A DNA stretch of 64,000 bases, from positions 9,715 through 73,714 of the forward strand of contig JAZLHJ010000055.1 in the NCBI GenBank assembly GCA_045616785.1. The letters are read 5' to 3'. This DNA comes from Lachnospiraceae bacterium (GTDB lineage: Bacteria; Bacillota; Clostridia; Lachnospirales; Lachnospiraceae). This document shows positions 3,186-22,343 of the stretch, piece by piece (within the stretch, counting starts at the first letter, position 1; each line of letters begins with the position of its first letter). Both the position numbers and the translations under genes were made by a program. Under the pieces are notes generated by a model. That model was not told the origin of the DNA. It did not search any database and worked only from the letters and a program-made list of their open reading frames with translations.

Positions 3186-5019
3186 TGTCGCAGAAGAGCT
3201 GAAAAAACTCCCGGGAAAACCGGGAGTTTATATTATGCATGACGAATTTGATACAGTTATCTATGTCGGAAAGGCCGTGAACCTGCATAACAGGGTACGG
3301 TCTTATTTTCGTAAATTCATCGGAAGAGGTCCCGCGATAGACCAAATGGTTGAGAAAATCGCCTATTTTGAATATATCGTGACTGATTCCGAGCTTGAAG
3401 CGCTTGTACTTGAGAATAATCTGATTAAGGAACACAGACCGAAATACAATACGCTTCTTAAGGACGATAAAACGTATCCGTATATCAAAGTAACTGTTTT
3501 CGAAGCGTTTCCGAGGCTTTTGTTCGCAAGAAATGTAAAGAGAGACAGATCGAGATATTTCGGACCTTATACAAACGGCGCTGCCGTAAGAGATACAATT
3601 GAGCTCCTTAACAAAGTATACGGCCTCAGAAACTGTAACAGAAATCTTCCTTCCGATATAGGAAAAGAGAGAACCTGCCTTAATTACCACATAGGCTGCT
3701 GCAGCGGTCCATGTAACGGACATATATCCCGTGAGGAATACAGAAAAAGTGTTGAACTTGCTCTTGATTTTCTGTCCGGCAATCACAGGCAGATAGAAAA
3801 GGAGCTTGAAGCCAGGATGCTTGAGGCTTCCGAAAATCTTGAATTTGAAGAAGCGTCGAGATACAGGGATCTTCTCGCAAATGTAAAGCTTGTTTCGGAG
3901 AAACAGAAGATTACAAATTCCGACGGCGAAGACCGCGATATTATTGCACTTTGTCATGAAGAAAGTGACTGTGTGGTTCAGGTCTTCTTTGTAAGAGACG
4001 GAAGACTTATCGGACGGGAACATTATTATATGACAAATGTGTCAGAAACAAGTGACGGAAAAATACTTACCGGATTTATAGAGCAGTTCTATTCCGGAAC
4101 TCCGTTTATTCCCAAAGAGTTAATGCTTCAGCATGAGATAGAGAACCCGGAACTGATAGAAGAGTGGCTTTCTTCCAAGAGAGGAACCAGGGTTCATGTG
4201 ATAATACCCAAGATCGGTCAGCGGGAAAAGCTTGTTGAGCTTGCTGCCGAAAATGCCAGAGTCGTTCTTGCAAACGACAGGGAAAGGATAAGGAGAGAAG
4301 AAGGTCGCACAATCGGTGCCGTCAAGGAAATAGCTGACCTTTTGTCTCTTTCCGAAATTACACGTATGGAGGCATTTGATATTTCCAATATCAGCGGATT
4401 TGCAAATGTCGGTTCCATGGTTGTATTTGAGAAGGGAAAACCCAAAAGAAGCGATTACAGAAAATTTAAAATTAAGACGGTTGCGGGTCCGGATGACTAT
4501 GCCTGCATGAGGGAAGTGCTCACAAGAAGGTTTGAAAGAGGAACAAGCGGTGAGGATATGTCTTCTTTTTCCAGACTTCCGGATCTGCTTATGATGGACG
4601 GAGGAAAAGGACAGGTCGGAATTGCGCTTGAGGTACTTTCGCAGCTTGGCGTTAATATTCCGGTATGCGGAATGGTTAAGGATGACAACCACAGAACAAG
4701 AGGCCTTTACTATAACAATGAGCTTGTTCCGATCGATACAAGGTCCGAGGGCTTTAAGCTGATTACAAGAATTCAGGATGAGGCGCACAGATTTGCGATA
4801 GAGTATCACAGATCACTTCGAAGCAAGGCGCAGACGCATTCGATTCTGGATGAAATACCGGGAGTGGGACCCGAGAGAAGAAAGGCACTTATGAGAAGCT
4901 TTGATTCGATTGAAGAAATTAAGATTTCTTCTCCGGAAGTGATGTCTGAGAAAGCGGGGATTCCGCTTCCTGTTTCCGAAAAGATACATGAATTCTTTCA
5001 CAAAAATGATAATATTTGA
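3169..5019 (+). CDS. uvrC: Excinuclease ABC subunit C
   Basis: 616 aa. GIY-YIG N-terminus ([26 protein letters not shown]) and C-terminal helix-hairpin-helix ([20 protein letters not shown]). The start overlaps the ftsH 3' end by 17 nt. Confidence 0.97.
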
Positions 5020-17261: not shown

Positions 17262-17345
17262 ATTTTTTTTATGGAATTTTTATCGCATTTGTGAGAAAAT
17301 AACTCTATATATTCAGTGACAGAAGGAAAGGGGGCGCGTATAACT

Positions 17346-19583
17346 ATGGTTGTTCAGGCTTTAGACATCTTTGTTCTTGTTCTTGCCGTAGTGGTTCTGT
17401 ATATCGGCTGCTCCGTTCTCTGGTCAAAAAGCAGGAAGACAAGTGAGGTTTATCTTCTTGCAGGTCTTTGCTTTTCTTCTGCACTCTGGTCTGTCGGAGA
17501 AGGTGCAATACCTTTCATATCCGACATGTCGATTGCCAAGTATTTCCGTCTCTTAACGCCTATCGGAGTTGTATCGTATCTTGCGCTTGCTCTTGTTATC
17601 CTCTTAAGTTTCAGTAATGTTAAACGGACGATAAGAATCTGTATGGAGATATTCTCCATGTTCGGTTTTATCGTTGCTCTATTAATGATTCTCGGAAATG
17701 ATATTACCGAGGAAGTTGTTAAATTGGGATTTCTCGTGGGAAACGAGAAGAATTCTGTCTGGCCGTCGATATATACAATTTATATTTATGTGATGGTTGC
17801 CTTCATTTTTGTCATGATTATCTTCATGATAAATTCCAAAAAGAACAGTATTCACTCCTTCGGAAGAAAACTTGTTCCGGCGCTGTTTCTCATAGTAATC
17901 GGACCGACACTTAATATGATTCTTCCTGAAAACGCGACTGTAAGAATTCCTTCTGCGGTAGTGGCACAGGCTGTCAGTGCAATGATTTTATACAGAACGG
18001 TGATGTATATCTGGAAAACGAAGTTTAATCCTTCGAATATGGCAGAATATATTTACAGTTCCATGACAATACCGATTCTTGTTTTTGATGAGCTCCAGAA
18101 GCTCCACATTGTTAATAAGGCTGCGATTGATTTCTTTGAACTTGATGAGAAAAAAGTAAATGACGAAGAGTACACGATAGACGAGCTCATATCTGTTAAA
18201 GATCATGTTGATTTGTTCTTTTTTGAGGGTAACGGATATACCTTCATGACAGAAAGGGCATCTGACGGAAAGGTACCGATTAATGTTACAGTCAATAAAA
18301 TCATAGATTCCTATGAGGATCTTATCGGTTATATTGTGTCCGTTAAGGATCTTTCAAAAGAGTATGAAATGATGGGGCAGCTTAAACTGTCCAAAGAGGC
18401 GGCTGAAGTTGCAAACCGCTCGAAGAGTGCGTTTCTTGCCAATATGTCGCATGAGATTCGTACTCCGATGAATGCCATAATCGGTTTCTCTGAGCTGATT
18501 CTTAAAATGGACCCGCCGCCGGGAATTCTTGATTATGCGCGTGATATCAAGACGTCTTCGCAGAGTCTTCTTGCGATTATCAATGATATTCTTGATATTT
18601 CAAAGCTTGAATCCGGTAAGATGGAGCTTGTCTGCGGTAACTATTATCCATCCAGGCTCTATCAGGATGTCTATATGATAATTAAGACCCAGACCATGAA
18701 AAAGGATCTGAGGCTTGAGATTAATCTTGATCCGGAAATGCCTAACCAGCTCTACGGTGATAAGGTTCGAATAAGAGGAATTCTCATTAACCTTCTTAAC
18801 AATGCCGTTAAGTATACGATGGTCGGTACAATATCGCTTGATGTGAAGGTTTTGAAGAAGGAAAACGGAATTGCGTCTCTGGAATTTCGCGTAAAGGATA
18901 CAGGCTCCGGAGTAAAACCCGAAGAAATAGGCAAGCTGTTTGAAGCTTTTGCCCAGGTTGATCAGAAGGTTCATGAGGGCGTTGAAGGAACAGGTCTCGG
19001 ACTCCCGATTGTCAAGGGATATATCGATCTTATGGGCGGAACAATAAATGTTGAGAGTACCTACGGTGTCGGAACAACATTTATCGTTAATATTGACCAG
19101 AAAATTATTGATGATAAACCTATGGATTCCGCGTTTGAAGAGAAGAAGCTCGAAACGGAATACAGCATAGGAACATTAAAGATTGATAATACAAAGGTCC
19201 TTATTGTTGATGACAGCAGACTGAACCTTAAGGTTGCCGCCAATATTATGCTTCAGTACGGTCTTGAAGTGGATACGGCGCCAAGCGGGGCAGAAGCCAT
19301 TGAAAAGTGTAAGAAGTGCCAGTACAACATTGTCTTTATGGATCAGATGATGCCCGAAATGGATGGTATCGAAGCCATGAACAGAATCAGGGATATTAAT
19401 CCCGACTATGCAAAGGGCGGAAAGTCCAAGATGGTAATTCTTACAGCAAATGCAATAAACGGAATGCGTGCCGAGCTTCTTGAAAAAGGATTTGATGAAT
19501 TCCTCGGTAAGCCGATGAATTATAAACAGCTTGAAAGAATTCTCGTTCAGTTCTCACCTGAAGAGAATATCAGATATGAATAG
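17346..19583 (+). CDS. Hybrid sensor histidine kinase / response regulator (multi-TM sensor, PAS-like, HisKA, HATPase, REC)
   Basis: The track ORF starts at GTG 17316. ATG 17346 follows the purine-rich GGAAAGGGGG, so the start is ambiguous between the two. About 6-7 TM helices with very short loops. H-box [17 protein letters not shown]-box [10 protein letters not shown]-boxes KDTGSGV and [10 protein letters not shown]-terminal receiver [21 protein letters not shown]. No HPt domain seen. Confidence 0.9.
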
Positions 19584-19601
19584 CATTAGGAGTATTAACA
19601 A

Positions 19602-20969
19602 ATGAAACCCATCAGGTTCTATCTGGCAATGGGTGTGGGAAAGCTTGCGAGAACAACGCAGAGAATTCTCGGAATGAATGCAAGCTTCTTCCCCGGAAAA
19701 CTTGCCGTAAAGATTTGCCCGGATTTTTTAAGTCATGTGGGCACCCCCGAAAAACTGATTTGTGTTACGGGGACAAACGGAAAAACAACTGTTTCAAATC
19801 TTCTTGTGGATCTTCTTGCCGCTGAAGGTATTGATACAATTAACAATCATACCGGCTCTAATACTGTCGGCGGTGTTGCAACGGCTCTTCTTACCGGTGC
19901 GCGTTTCTCCGGAAAATGTAAGAAAGAATGGGGCGTTCTCGAAATCGACGAGAGAAGCTCTATGCATATTTACCCCAGAATAAAACCCGGGTATGTTTTG
20001 TGTACCAATCTTTTCAGGGATTCCATTTTAAGAAACGGAAGTCCTGAATATATTGCCGGAATCGTATCTGACAACATGTATGAGAAAACAAAGCTTATTC
20101 TTAATGCCGACGACCTCATAAGCGGCAGTGTTGCTCCTTCAAATGAGCGTGTTTATTATGGAATTAAGCAGATGGCAACAGATACAAAAGAATGCCGCAA
20201 TATTGTTAATGACTGCCAGATATGTCCGAAGTGCGCAACAAAGCTTGAGTATGAATATGTCAGATATCATCAGATCGGAAAGGCATATTGCCCGGGCTGC
20301 GGATTTAAGTCGCCAAAGCCGGATTATGAAGCAGAAGTACATGCTGATGAAGGCTTTATGTACATTACGGCAAAGGGTGAAACCGAGAAGTATAAGCTTG
20401 TCAATAACAGTATTTTTAATATTTACAATCAGCTTGCCGTAACATCTCTTCTTAGGGAAATGGGCCTTTCTTCGGATGCGATTCGTGATGGATTCTCAAG
20501 ACTTCACATCCCTGATTTCAGGTATACGAAATTCGAAGCAGGCGGAATGACTGTTGTAGATATGATGGCAAAAGAGCATAATCCGATTGCCTGCTCCGTT
20601 GTATTTGATTATGTGTCGCATGAACCCGGAGTTAAGGAAATACTGTTTCTTCTTGATGACGAAACTCCGAGGGAAAGCATGTGCTGGATTTATGACTGTG
20701 ATTACGAGAAGCTTAATTCTCCTCTTATTCGTCATATTGTTATCCCCGGAACAAGGTCGCTTGACCAGAAACTTCGTCTTCTTATTGCGGGTGTTCCCGA
20801 AGAGAAAATCAGTATCGGTATGGAGGATACGAAGGCTCCGTCATACCTTAATTTCGACGGCGCCGACACTGTTTTTGTTCTCCATCAGCACTGGAAGCCC
20901 GAGATGGATAAGAAGGTTGTCGGGATAATTCGCGAAATGCTTGAAGAAAGGGGAAAAAAGAATGAGTAA
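19602..20969 (+). CDS. Mur-ligase-family protein, MurT-like (lipid II isoglutaminyl synthase ligase subunit homologue)
   Basis: 455 aa. ATP P-loop VTGTNGKTT, a Cys4 ribbon CQICPKC..CPGCGF at the MurT position, and a C-terminal DUF1727-type domain with WIYDCDYEKL. The conserved LNDNAADGRD loop of MurT reads LLDDETPRES here. Confidence 0.8.
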   Translation: MKPIRFYLAMGVGKLARTTQRILGMNASFFPGKLAVKICPDFLSHVGTPEKLICVTGTNGKTTVSNLLVDLLAAEGIDTINNHTGSNTVGGVATALLTGARFSGKCKKEWGVLEIDERSSMHIYPRIKPGYVLCTNLFRDSILRNGSPEYIAGIVSDNMYEKTKLILNADDLISGSVAPSNERVYYGIKQMATDTKECRNIVNDCQICPKCATKLEYEYVRYHQIGKAYCPGCGFKSPKPDYEAEVHADEGFMYITAKGETEKYKLVNNSIFNIYNQLAVTSLLREMGLSSDAIRDGFSRLHIPDFRYTKFEAGGMTVVDMMAKEHNPIACSVVFDYVSHEPGVKEILFLLDDETPRESMCWIYDCDYEKLNSPLIRHIVIPGTRSLDQKLRLLIAGVPEEKISIGMEDTKAPSYLNFDGADTVFVLHQHWKPEMDKKVVGIIREMLEERGKKNE

Positions 20970-21684
20970 GATTATTTTGGAATCTTTTTTTCCTGAAGTA
21001 GCAAACCTGTATGGCGATAACGGAAATATGCGTTATCTGAAGCTTTGTATTCCGGATGCGGAAACTGTAATTGACAGACTGAACGAGGAGCCGTATTTCG
21101 TTAAGAATACGCCGTCATTTATTGCGATGAGCCCGATGTCCGAAAGGGCGCAGGAGCTTGTAATTGCAAGACTTTTCCCTTATAGGGAGAGAATTGCCGA
21201 GCTCATAGAAATCGGATGCATTTTCCTTATGACCGGAAATGCCATGGAAATTTTCTTTGACGAAATTCAGAATGAAGACGGTACAAGCATAAAAGGACTC
21301 GGCATTTTCCATTACGTTGCGAAGAGGAAAATGTTTGACAGATATAACAGACACTGTATGGGTGATTTCGGAGATATCCGTATCGTAGGCTACAAGAATC
21401 AGTTTACACATGCATACGGTGACAATTCGAAGGAGTTCTTTTTGAGTGTGACAAAGGGAGACGGAATTAACCGTGAGTCTCAGCTTGAAGGGATAAAGAG
21501 AAATAATTTTTTCGGAACTTATCTTCTCGGACCGATACTTATTCAGAACCCGAAATTCACCAAATATATCCTCTCGCTTCTTGACAGAAGTGACGTAAGT
21601 CTGCCGTTTGAGGAGACAATAATGGCTGCCTATGAGAGGCGCAGGGAAGAGTACGAAGAAATGGAATTCGGACTGTACAGTTAA
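20962..21684 (+). CDS. GatD-like (CobQ-type glutamine amidotransferase-like) subunit with substituted catalytic Cys and His
   Basis: The track ORF starts at TTG 20941. ATG 20962 (MSKIILESFF) follows the purine-rich RBS-like GAAAGGGGAAAAAAG (20946-20960) and overlaps murT-like by 8 nt. Collinear with S. aureus GatD as I recall it: NLYGDNGN, IVGYKNQ, GTYLxGPIL. It reads LMTGNA where GatD has ICGGYQ, and GTYLLGP where GatD has GTYLHGP. Confidence 0.75.
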   Translation: MSKIILESFFPEVANLYGDNGNMRYLKLCIPDAETVIDRLNEEPYFVKNTPSFIAMSPMSERAQELVIARLFPYRERIAELIEIGCIFLMTGNAMEIFFDEIQNEDGTSIKGLGIFHYVAKRKMFDRYNRHCMGDFGDIRIVGYKNQFTHAYGDNSKEFFLSVTKGDGINRESQLEGIKRNNFFGTYLLGPILIQNPKFTKYILSLLDRSDVSLPFEETIMAAYERRREEYEEMEFGLYS

Positions 21685-21779: not shown

Positions 21780-22343
21780 ATGCAGACCGGAGTGGAAAAA
21801 ATCGAAATTGTCCAGATACATGGTGATGAAAGCATTATTAATATGCCGGATGATTCCTGGCTTTGTAATTCTCATCCCGTAACTCTCAGAGTGAAAACAA
21901 CAATTTGCGGAGAGAATGCATCAGGACTTAAGGTGTCACTGAATCTTGCACCTCTTTTCTACAACGGAGCGAAGCTTCCCCGTATCGAGGTTCAGATTCT
22001 GGCAGGGCTGATTCCTGCCGGTGAGAACATGCTTGTTACCGAAATTCCGGTGAAAAATCCGAGACTTTGGTTCCCGGAAGAACTCGGAGACAGGAATATT
22101 TACGAGCTTATTGTAACCGTGAAGGAGCGTGGGGCTTTAGGCGGTGGAGAGGCGGCCAAAAAGATAAACGAGATGAAGCCGCTTTGTGAAGAAAGGTTTA
22201 ATATCGGACTGTGTAATGCTTGTGAGGTGCCGGGGGAATCGGGGAAATACCGTGTAAACGGTTATGATTTCAAACCGGATGAATCTGCTTACGAAAACTG
22301 TGATGCATTTATCAGCGAATGCGTCAGACTGCACATTTTGTGA
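21780..22343 (+). CDS. Small protein resembling an internal fragment of a GH2 glycosidase (beta-sandwich region only); possible gene relic
   Basis: 187 aa with a good RBS (AGGAGG 7 nt upstream). VKNPRLWFPEELGDRNIYELIVTV and ERFNIGL..YRVNGYDFKP resemble the NPxLW..G.PxLY and FGxR..xxNG segments that precede the catalytic TIM barrel in GH2 enzymes. No barrel or catalytic Glu region follows. Confidence 0.45.
   Translation: MQTGVEKIEIVQIHGDESIINMPDDSWLCNSHPVTLRVKTTICGENASGLKVSLNLAPLFYNGAKLPRIEVQILAGLIPAGENMLVTEIPVKNPRLWFPEELGDRNIYELIVTVKERGALGGGEAAKKINEMKPLCEERFNIGLCNACEVPGESGKYRVNGYDFKPDESAYENCDAFISECVRLHIL

Follow-up and report, generated by a model that had tools for sequence, protein, structure and literature searches.

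A MurT/GatD-like gene pair without glutaminase residues, conserved among mostly uncultured gut and rumen Clostridia

The window analyzed here, a 64,000-nucleotide stretch of contig JAZLHJ010000055.1 from a Lachnospiraceae bacterium, contains two overlapping genes whose products resemble MurT and GatD, the two subunits of the glutamine-hydrolysing lipid II isoglutaminyl synthase (EC 6.3.5.13). MurT/GatD is essential and a drug target in staphylococci, streptococci and mycobacteria. The murT-like gene (positions 19602–20969; + strand, as are all features of the pair given below) encodes 455 amino acids with a Mur-ligase central domain and a MurT C-terminal domain, and is without the UDP-binding N-terminal domain; read from the sequence, a Shine-Dalgarno-like AGGAG (19588–19592) lies 9 nt ahead of its ATG. 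The gatD-like gene (20962–21684) encodes 240 amino acids from an ATG at 20962 that overlaps the murT-like TAA stop codon by 8 nt, and its product has the GatD fold without the glutaminase residues. The gatD-like open reading frame (ORF) is open from a TTG at 20941, and the ATG at 20962, which is preceded by the purine-rich stretch AAGGGGAAAAAAGA, is the more plausible start. The operon order and the folds are those of the canonical MurT/GatD complexes of Staphylococcus aureus, Streptococcus pneumoniae and Streptococcus pyogenes (PDB 6gs2, 6h5e, 7q8e, 6fqb, 9sq9). From the comparisons below, we read the pair as a working MurT/GatD complex that would not depend on glutamine.

The MurT-like protein keeps nearly every residue known to matter for the binding of ATP and of the acceptor carboxylate, for Mg and for formation of the acyl phosphate. 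Its sole significant Pfam domains are MurT_C (5e-20) and Mur_ligase_M (1e-5), and in a HMMER search of PDB chains it matches S. aureus MurT (PDB 7q8e_A/6gs2_B) at E=7e-59 and 203 bits. Since S. aureus MurT matches two streptococcal MurTs at 226 and 208 bits, the MurT-like protein is, on this measure, about as close to S. aureus MurT as the streptococcal proteins are. Scores against the NCBIfam MurT equivalog models NF052464 and NF045635 are 227 and 166 bits, below the cutoff of 800, and the MurC, MurD, MurE and MurF models give at most 34 bits (MurE-type about 34) against cutoffs above 200. For both proteins of the pair, the best NCBIfam matches are the MurT and GatD equivalog models, all far under their curated cutoffs.

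Conservation in the ligase subunit was counted over 120 homologues of at least 48% identity. The ATP P-loop GTNGKTT (residues 57–63, 19770–19790), which includes the equivalents of S. aureus K59 and T60, is invariant in all 120. So are the Gly and Asn of T-G-S-N-T (19851–19865), whose Asn is the equivalent of S. pneumoniae MurT Asn85, a residue that touches the acceptor carboxylate (PMC6085368), and the E, D and E of E-I-D-E-R-S (19941–19958), which holds the Mg/ATP glutamate (S. aureus E108) together with D110 and E111. The segment F-R-D-S-I-L-R-N-G-S (20013–20042) corresponds to the 135–143 loop of S. pneumoniae MurT, the ‘negative gate’ at the GatD interface; its R, D and R (R133/D134/R138) are invariant (120/120; family consensus RDSI[QHL]RNAH). 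Here the equivalents of S. pneumoniae Asp136 and Arg140, whose functional importance is known from mutants (PMC6085368), are kept, and those of Asp139 and Glu143 are replaced. In the Cys4 zinc-ribbon insertion CQICPKC ... CPGCG (20214–20303), three of the four cysteines are invariant and the fourth aligns in 109 of the 120. Also invariant are N264/N267 and W352, the last being the Trp needed for GatD binding in canonical MurT. All of the mutagenesis-tested residues T60, E108 and N267 (S. aureus numbering) and N85, D136 and R140 (S. pneumoniae numbering) are present in the window, their roles being known from mutagenesis and structure (PMC6085368, PMC6113224).

The ligase subunit is altered in the loop that faces GatD. 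At 20649–20708 it reads LLDDETPRESMCWIYDCDYE in place of the canonical LNDNAADGRD349TSWIYDADFE, in which Asp349 of S. aureus MurT (Asp355 in S. pneumoniae) faces the GatD active site. Counting along the HMMER alignment to S. aureus MurT, Asp349 (in GRD349TSW) aligns to Ser359 in ..PRESMCW.., with Glu358 one residue earlier. Across the homologues, position 349 is I, N or S and never Asp, and position 348 is Glu in 120/120. The canonical DNAAD motif has become DD followed by a variable loop, which is four residues shorter in the clade to which the window belongs.

The GatD-like subunit has diverged further. It matches S. aureus GatD (PDB 5n9m/6gs2_A) at E=1e-13 and 55 bits (HMMER), while canonical GatDs score 146–165 bits against each other; it is about three-fold more diverged than its MurT-like partner. 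It has no Pfam match at E<=0.01, and it scores 59 and 55 bits against the NCBIfam equivalogs NF052463 and NF045636, whose cutoffs are 450 and 400. An AlphaFold2 model (pLDDT 95) nevertheless shows the GatD/CobQ-type class I amidotransferase fold: its nine best Foldseek matches in the PDB, with TM scores of 0.76–0.83, are all GatD chains, taken from the complexes of S. aureus, S. pneumoniae and S. pyogenes. We mapped the catalytic positions in two ways, with HMMER and with a MAFFT alignment that included S. aureus and S. pneumoniae GatD, and the two agree. Conservation was tallied over the best 120 of 259 homologues returned by the search (45–99% identity) and over a second set of 149 representatives of 50%-identity clusters.

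At the old nucleophile elbow, T-I-C94-G-G-Y-Q in S. aureus, the window reads LMTGNAME (21226–21249), so that Cys94 has become Gly92, Gly95 has become Asn93, Gly96 has become Ala and Gln98 has become Glu96. The Cys94 position is Gly in 117 and Ser in 3 of the 120 close homologues, and Gly in 131 of the 149 representatives (Ser, Ala or Asn in the others); not one of the 269 sequences inspected has Cys there. The Gly95 position, part of the oxyanion hole, is Asn in all 120 close homologues and in 139/149 representatives, and the Gln98 position is Glu in 119/120 and Glu or Asp in 147/149. The Thr preceding the old Cys (Thr91, position 93) is present in 115 of the 120 close homologues. The oxyanion strand, F-I-G-G-G-S-D, is replaced by AMSPMSE (21124–21144), which differs at two positions from the family consensus YMGPMTE. 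Within it, Gly60, which with Gly95 was defined as the oxyanion hole in the crystal-structure paper (PMC5871853), has become Pro (P, S or A across the family), and Asp63 has become Glu, as in 120/120 close homologues and 93% of the 149 representatives. The former His loop reads GTYLLGPIL (21514–21540): His189 is replaced by Leu189, and the Gly-Pro and the hydrophobic stretch that contacts MurT are kept. This position is L, I or V in 120/120 close homologues and His in one of the 149 representatives, and G190 and P191 are about 95% conserved among the representatives. The one representative with His (P0352, …TTLHGPFLV) is still Cys-less (…VTGNAAD…) and may be an intermediate or a reversion.

Other parts of the glutamine site are retained. 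NLYGDNGN (21004–21027) corresponds to the loop S. aureus N15–N22, including Y17 and D19, which in canonical GatD forms a cap over the active site and a plug in the path of ammonia (PMC6085368, PMC5871853); its N, L, Y/F, G, D/E and N are conserved across the family. In FDRYNRH (21334–21354), Arg127 aligns under HMMER with Arg128 of S. aureus and Arg142 of S. pneumoniae, which contact the glutamine substrate and whose Ala mutant is inactive (PMC5871853, PMC6085368). This Arg is invariant in a 44-sequence alignment and present in 93% of the representatives.

Class I amidotransferases are defined by a Cys-His-(Glu/Asp) triad with a G-x-C-x-G elbow, which the GatD-like protein does not have. Because the protein has neither the nucleophile Cys nor the His nor either of the oxyanion-hole glycines, and because no conserved Cys or His column that could supply an alternative nucleophile exists anywhere in the family alignment, class I glutaminase chemistry is excluded as far as the alignments can tell, and the GatD-like protein would be unable to hydrolyse glutamine. 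An earlier note on this DNA, made by eye, had proposed that the triad is erased on both subunits, that glutamine hydrolysis is impossible and that the pair nonetheless looks functional. These proposals hold up: the formal alignments place Gly, Leu and Ser at Cys94, His189 and Asp349 and put no Cys/His pair at the catalytic positions, and the genes are intact and conserved. The note correctly gave His189 as Leu, Asp349 as lost, and the flanking blocks (NLYGDNGN, GTYL.GP, WIYD.D.E), the P-loop and the Cys4 ribbon as retained. It was one position off in reading Cys94 as Thr, which is the preceding residue, though right that no Cys is there, and its list did not include the oxyanion-hole losses Gly60 to Pro and Gly95 to Asn.

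Conservation of the altered cleft across the family

The changes extend beyond a single genome. Searching 1.84 billion cluster representatives with a profile returned 345 clusters at 50% identity with E<=1e-30, the best 149 of which are the representatives inspected above, and a family-specific peptide pattern, scanned against one genome per GTDB species, found at least 318 species. Clusters and species alike are Clostridia-type and mostly uncultured. The species count is a lower bound, as the window’s own sequence deviates from the pattern. Because the same substitutions recur in the 120 closest homologues and in the 149 cluster representatives, chance or sequencing error would not account for them and is ruled out on this comparison. 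Of the 80 loci returned by the GTDB scan, 79 are from uncultured genomes, the sole cultured species being Porcipelethomonas ammoniilytica, represented by Sanger_90 at locus L058. The carriers are named as Lachnospiraceae, Oscillospiraceae, Acutalibacteraceae, Clostridia and Bacilli, and they come from the rumen, from human, mouse, rabbit and other guts, and from digesters, all of them anaerobic habitats.

The partnership of the two subunits is strict. The murT-like gene lies directly upstream of the gatD-like gene on the same strand in 86/86 loci, and two members are read-through fusions of MurT, linker and GatD: P0122 (724 amino acids, ‘Candidatus Merdinaster equi’) and P0144 (728 amino acids). 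The linkers are about 25–40 residues long, and these natural fusions would be convenient constructs for biochemistry or structure work. Three further proteins of fusion length (P0259, P0262 and P0330; 698–758 amino acids) match the GatD profile at their C-terminal end and are candidate fusions. Beyond the pair, gene neighborhoods differ between lineages and are not cell-wall specific. Clustering of the neighbors gave no third gene conserved across the family, only lineage-specific housekeeping synteny (by eye, aspS or mnmA upstream, and rlmN, a PP2C phosphatase, a PASTA kinase, rsgA and rpe downstream), and a single recurrent informative neighbor, the transaminase discussed below. The earlier note had asked whether a second, canonical murT-gatD pair is present: tblastn found no second murT/gatD-like locus in the window, and no canonical pair lies within 8–10 kb on either side in the 86 loci.

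A GatD-like subunit that served solely as a scaffold would be expected to let its dead active site drift. We ranked conservation over 231 columns in representatives no more than 50% identical, using amino-acid conservation since the divergence is too deep for dN/dS. The Asn at position 95 ranks 10th and the Glu at 63 ranks 11th, with the Gly at 94 and the Thr at 93 in the top 32, and 17 columns of the GatD-like alignment are invariant down to 43% identity. The new conserved set comprises T-G-N-A-x-E and G-P-M-T/S-E. That the replacements rank among the most conserved columns argues that the old active site is rewritten rather than eroded. Together with the retained glutamine-capturing Arg, the strong conservation of this set suggests that the GatD-like protein is probably more than the structural pseudo-enzyme that the earlier note had envisaged, and that it would form a re-tooled ligand cleft. 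No specificity-determining position emerged when clades were compared; the cleft residues are alike in clades with and without the linked transaminase.

Association with a diaminobutyrate transaminase

In 13 of about 81 distinct genome loci, a class III aminotransferase gene lies immediately downstream of the pair, with a gap of 14–292 bp. The enzyme is a diaminobutyrate-2-oxoglutarate transaminase, with 605 bits where PRK09264 requires 438 and 581 bits where the ectB model TIGR02407 requires 552. The 13 linked loci form two neighboring clades in a neighbor-joining tree of MurT plus GatD, and the clade of the window is sister to one of them. Because of this sister relationship, the adjacency is probably ancestral and lost in the window’s clade. 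A reverse search of metagenomes that started from the transaminase gave the same picture for the closest subclade, in which all loci with enough flanking sequence have the pair directly upstream.

The reverse search is complemented by two deep pairs, on contigs L108 and L164, which are 33–39% identical at MurT, keep the family motifs and are likewise without the Cys and His. Their gene orders differ: L108 has an aspartokinase-like gene, ectB, murT-like and gatD-like, and L164 has ectB, murT-like, gatD-like and an alanine-racemase-fold gene. A 2,4-diaminobutyrate (DAB) transaminase thus lies beside the pair in four deep lineages and in three gene orders, a recurrence that is hard to ascribe to inheritance alone. 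We had considered whether the high-GC pair of L108 derives from Actinobacteria with a known DAB type-B wall and rejected this, its relatives being metagenome-assembled genomes of Oscillospiraceae and Clostridiales. Within the GatD-like ORF of L164 (2875–3723, 280 amino acids), a stretch of about 45 residues is directly duplicated (…FLITGNADMIYMGSMPDS…FLITGNALEIFG…), which could be an assembly artefact or real.

The same transaminase subfamily is also found in other settings. On the metagenome contigs L151–L155, L158 and L165 it is followed by a ‘sugar-transfer associated ATP-grasp’ ligase (ATPgrasp_ST, PF14397), another type of carboxylate-amine ligase, which suggests that gut Firmicutes differ in the ligase with which they attach DAB to envelope polymers. 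On L159, a truncated MurT-like remnant (3933–4922, 327 amino acids) that keeps the Cys4 ribbon and has lost the P-loop stands directly upstream of the DAB transaminase; after the transaminase come LicD-, TarI- and TarJ-like genes of the teichoic-acid type, identified by eye. On the human-gut contigs L110–L148, which reach 718 kb and belong to an organism very common in the human gut, the transaminase sits between genes resembling those of glycyl-tRNA synthetase and pyruvate phosphate dikinase (by eye), and no ligase is found near it.

Candidate activities of the complex

In the reading we favor, the MurT-like subunit would still activate lipid II at the D-iso-Glu alpha-carboxylate by turning it into an acyl phosphate, and the attacking nucleophile would be a preformed amine rather than ammonia released from glutamine. 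The acceptor is expected to be unchanged because similarity to MurT is at the level of orthologs, the acceptor Asn is kept and the UDP-binding domain is absent. For the nucleophile we tentatively put forward a preformed diamino compound, a proposal to which we give somewhat less than an even chance; L- or D-2,4-diaminobutyrate ranks first among the candidates, given that the four deep lineages encode a DAB-forming transaminase next to the pair. DAB would bind in or near the re-tooled, more acidic cleft at the GatD/MurT interface, and the reaction would leave a D-Glu-alpha-(diamino acid) branch of the kind seen in type-B or diamine-substituted peptidoglycans. The window’s clade, in which the transaminase is not adjacent and the MurT loop is four residues shorter, is assumed to share this chemistry. 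A DAB-adding ligase accounts for the transaminase linkage, for the more acidic cleft with its carboxylate clamp and for the changed DNAAD motif. For this, the remodeled complex would have to deliver the diamino acid to the acyl phosphate, and lineages without the linkage would have to carry the DAB gene elsewhere.

Related chemistry is known. The amino-acid-adding Mur ligases such as MurE share with the MurT-like protein both the central and the C-terminal domain as well as ATP-dependent acyl-phosphate chemistry; unlike MurC–F, the MurT-like protein has no UDP-MurNAc-binding N-terminal domain and has an obligatory GatD-type partner. In peptidoglycans described by Schleifer and Kandler and by Kamio, the alpha-carboxyl of D-Glu is reportedly substituted by D-Orn, D-Lys or DAB (type-B cross-links), by Gly or by D-Ala-amide, and Kamio’s work is said to have found cadaverine or putrescine in the peptidoglycan of Selenomonas and Veillonella. 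To our knowledge, the genes for these substitutions have not been identified so far. The predicted product would be of the same kind, an amide to an amine other than ammonia. That the family is the missing enzyme that attaches DAB to the D-Glu alpha-carboxyl of lipid II, with the GatD-like protein as the subunit that binds or presents the diamino acid, is a more specific idea, which we consider rather unlikely but worth stating. A type-B peptidoglycan scheme with DAB is given in a recent review, in whose listing most genera of Lachnospiraceae, Ruminococcaceae and Oscillospiraceae have an unknown peptidoglycan type (PMC11382707), and the DNAAD region has been discussed beside the MurE motif D(D,N)P(N,A), which recognises L-Lys (PMC6113224). 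In the full-text literature searched we found no description of a Cys-less GatD or of an amine-adding MurT; the archaeal ‘MurT-like’ genes of a pseudomurein pangenomics paper are a different situation, as they have no GatD partner. If the DAB proposal is true, hundreds of uncultured gut and rumen Clostridia would build an unrecorded type-B-like or D-Glu-branched peptidoglycan, and their innate-immune ligands, which depend on position-2 chemistry (NOD1/NOD2), would differ from the textbook ones.

Several observations weigh against a DAB-adding ligase. No DAB transaminase is found within the 64-kb window, none is nearby in about 68 of the 81 genome loci, and three relatives of L108 have no adjacent ectB. 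The linkage of the transaminase gene could have a different cause, such as the presence of DAB at position 3 of the stem peptide, and the lipid II D-iso-Glu acceptor is itself inferred from homology only. In canonical complexes a distance of about 20 Å or more separates the GatD site from the acyl-phosphate site, and ammonia alone is believed to pass from one to the other (PMC6113224, PMC6085368); a diamino acid held in the GatD cleft could not simply diffuse across such a distance. Finally, an engineered S. aureus GatD with glycine in place of Cys94 (C94G) uses plain ammonia without any new pocket (PMC3266927).

This last observation underlies the strongest rival, a lipid II isoglutaminyl synthase that uses free NH3/NH4+ from the ammonia-rich cytoplasm of gut and rumen cells and keeps its GatD-like subunit for the folding and function of MurT; we regard it as a serious possibility, yet one that is more doubtful than probable. 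The re-tooled acidic cleft may then take up NH4+, deprotonate it and supply the former ammonia path. The engineered S. aureus complex carries the identical Cys-to-Gly substitution at the nucleophile and, with MurT, loses glutamine use but can still amidate with NH3 at pH 8.5, and no donor supports activity of MurT alone (Münch et al. 2012, PMC3266927), which together would give a reason to retain a dead GatD. The intact MurT catalytic residues, the conserved gate/plug loop NLYGD.GN, and the acidic gains in the cleft (Gln98 to Glu, and MurT Glu348) also fit, as do the anaerobic gut, rumen and digester sources of all carrier genomes. Human carbamoyl phosphate synthetase, CPS1 (PDB 5dot), is among the more distant fold matches of the GatD-like model and keeps an inactive class I amidotransferase module. 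Ammonia-dependent CPS I retains a Cys-less glutaminase domain and takes its nitrogen from free ammonia. It differs in belonging to another synthetase family and in having the module as a fused domain, so that the analogy is one of principle rather than of system homology.

Against ammonia stands the behavior of the S. aureus enzyme, which is inactive with NH3 or NH4Cl at pH 7.5 (PMC3266927). The C94G mutant keeps His189, the oxyanion hole and Asp349, whereas the natural family has remodeled the whole cleft and fixed new residues. Use of free ammonia leaves these residues and the retained amino-acid-capturing Arg unexplained, and equally the repeated linkage to a DAB transaminase in three gene orders, and in the ‘negative gate’ of MurT two or three acidic residues are lost, not gained. 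The two routes that the earlier note had offered, an ammonia-dependent ligase and a ligase repurposed for another substrate, both keep support, the first from the C94G precedent and the second from the linkage in four deep lineages; its argument from an ammonia-rich habitat fits the sources of the genomes but is not specific. A hybrid, ammonia amidation of a stem peptide that contains DAB, is possible.

The acceptor might also be something other than lipid II, such as a DAB-containing envelope polymer or small molecule, or the GatD-like subunit might be a ligand sensor that regulates the ligase, for instance one that binds glutamine or some other amino acid and leaves it unhydrolysed. The retained Arg and the conserved new pocket fit binding without catalysis, the DNAAD motif that has been replaced is implicated in stem-peptide recognition (PMC6113224), the neighborhoods are variable and not cell-wall specific, and elsewhere the DAB transaminase adjoins teichoic-acid-type genes and ATP-grasp ligases. 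We nevertheless consider these proposals improbable: the MurT-like protein is as near to bona fide MurT as the streptococcal MurTs are to that of S. aureus, and the acceptor-carboxylate Asn and the absence of the UDP-binding domain, as in MurT, favor the same lipid-linked acceptor. A cryptic glutaminase that works through non-canonical residues (the conserved Thr91 or a Glu), or a misplaced alignment, is very improbable; the conservation of the Thr before the old Cys (115/120) and of the glutamine-capturing Arg speaks for it, and against it are the agreement of HMMER and MAFFT, the want of any conserved Cys or His, the change of the oxyanion glycines to Pro and Asn and the inactivity of S. aureus C94S and C94G (PMC6113224). 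Decay of the pair, which the lost catalytic residues and the scores far under the NCBIfam equivalog cutoffs could have indicated, is refuted, to judge by conservation, by intact ORFs in at least 318 species, strict synteny, 17 invariant GatD-like columns, invariant MurT catalytic residues and the fusions.

These comparisons bear on how the pair is to be named. It shares with canonical MurT/GatD the MurT central domain, Cys4 ribbon, MurT_C and ATP/Mg/acceptor residues, and on the GatD side the capping loop, the Gly-Pro hydrophobic contact stretch and the substrate-capturing Arg; unlike the canonical complex it has Cys94, His189, Gly60, Gly95, MurT Asp349 and DNAAD all replaced, and it has a new conserved Asn, Glu and Glu in GatD and Glu348 in MurT. 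The pair descends from MurT/GatD and would act in a similar way, yet should not be filed as EC 6.3.5.13, because four features that define the glutamine-hydrolysing enzyme are missing (Cys94, His189, the oxyanion hole and MurT Asp349) and both proteins score below the curated cutoffs. Members are labeled ‘hypothetical protein’ or ‘CobQ-like glutamine amidotransferase family enzyme’ in the databases. One Cys-less member, P0394 (IMG; in the same 90% cluster as P0006), is labeled ‘lipid II isoglutaminyl synthase (glutamine-hydrolysing)’. Where automated pipelines pass EC 6.3.5.13 on to this Cys-less family, they probably do so wrongly, and with labels this inconsistent, metabolic reconstructions for the carrier taxa may err at the amidation step. 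An intact ligase beside a dead, re-tooled glutaminase would imply a second nitrogen route or a different amine in dominant, mostly uncultured gut and rumen Clostridia, and the family offers a natural experiment in which an amidotransferase subunit turns into a pseudo-enzyme or a neo-functionalised partner.

Surrounding genes in the window

An ORF for a hybrid histidine kinase (17316–19583; 7TM sensor, HisKA, HATPase and receiver by Pfam) ends 18 nt upstream of the murT-like start, with no clear terminator between them, and co-transcription of the two is possible. This neighbor is not conserved among the related loci examined. Farther upstream of the pair lie ABC exporters. On the other side, between the gatD-like gene and a GH36 alpha-galactosidase gene, is an ORF of 187 amino acids (21780–22343) that has no Pfam or NCBIfam match and extends 25 nt past the start of the alpha-galactosidase gene (22319), overlapping it; this ORF may be what is left of a gene, or a mis-start of its neighbor. 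Over the whole window (1–64000), with a GC content of about 43%, the + strand carries almost all long ORFs and 31 of 32 2-kb bins have a positive GC skew, and this strand bias and skew fit a long leading-strand stretch of a Firmicutes chromosome.

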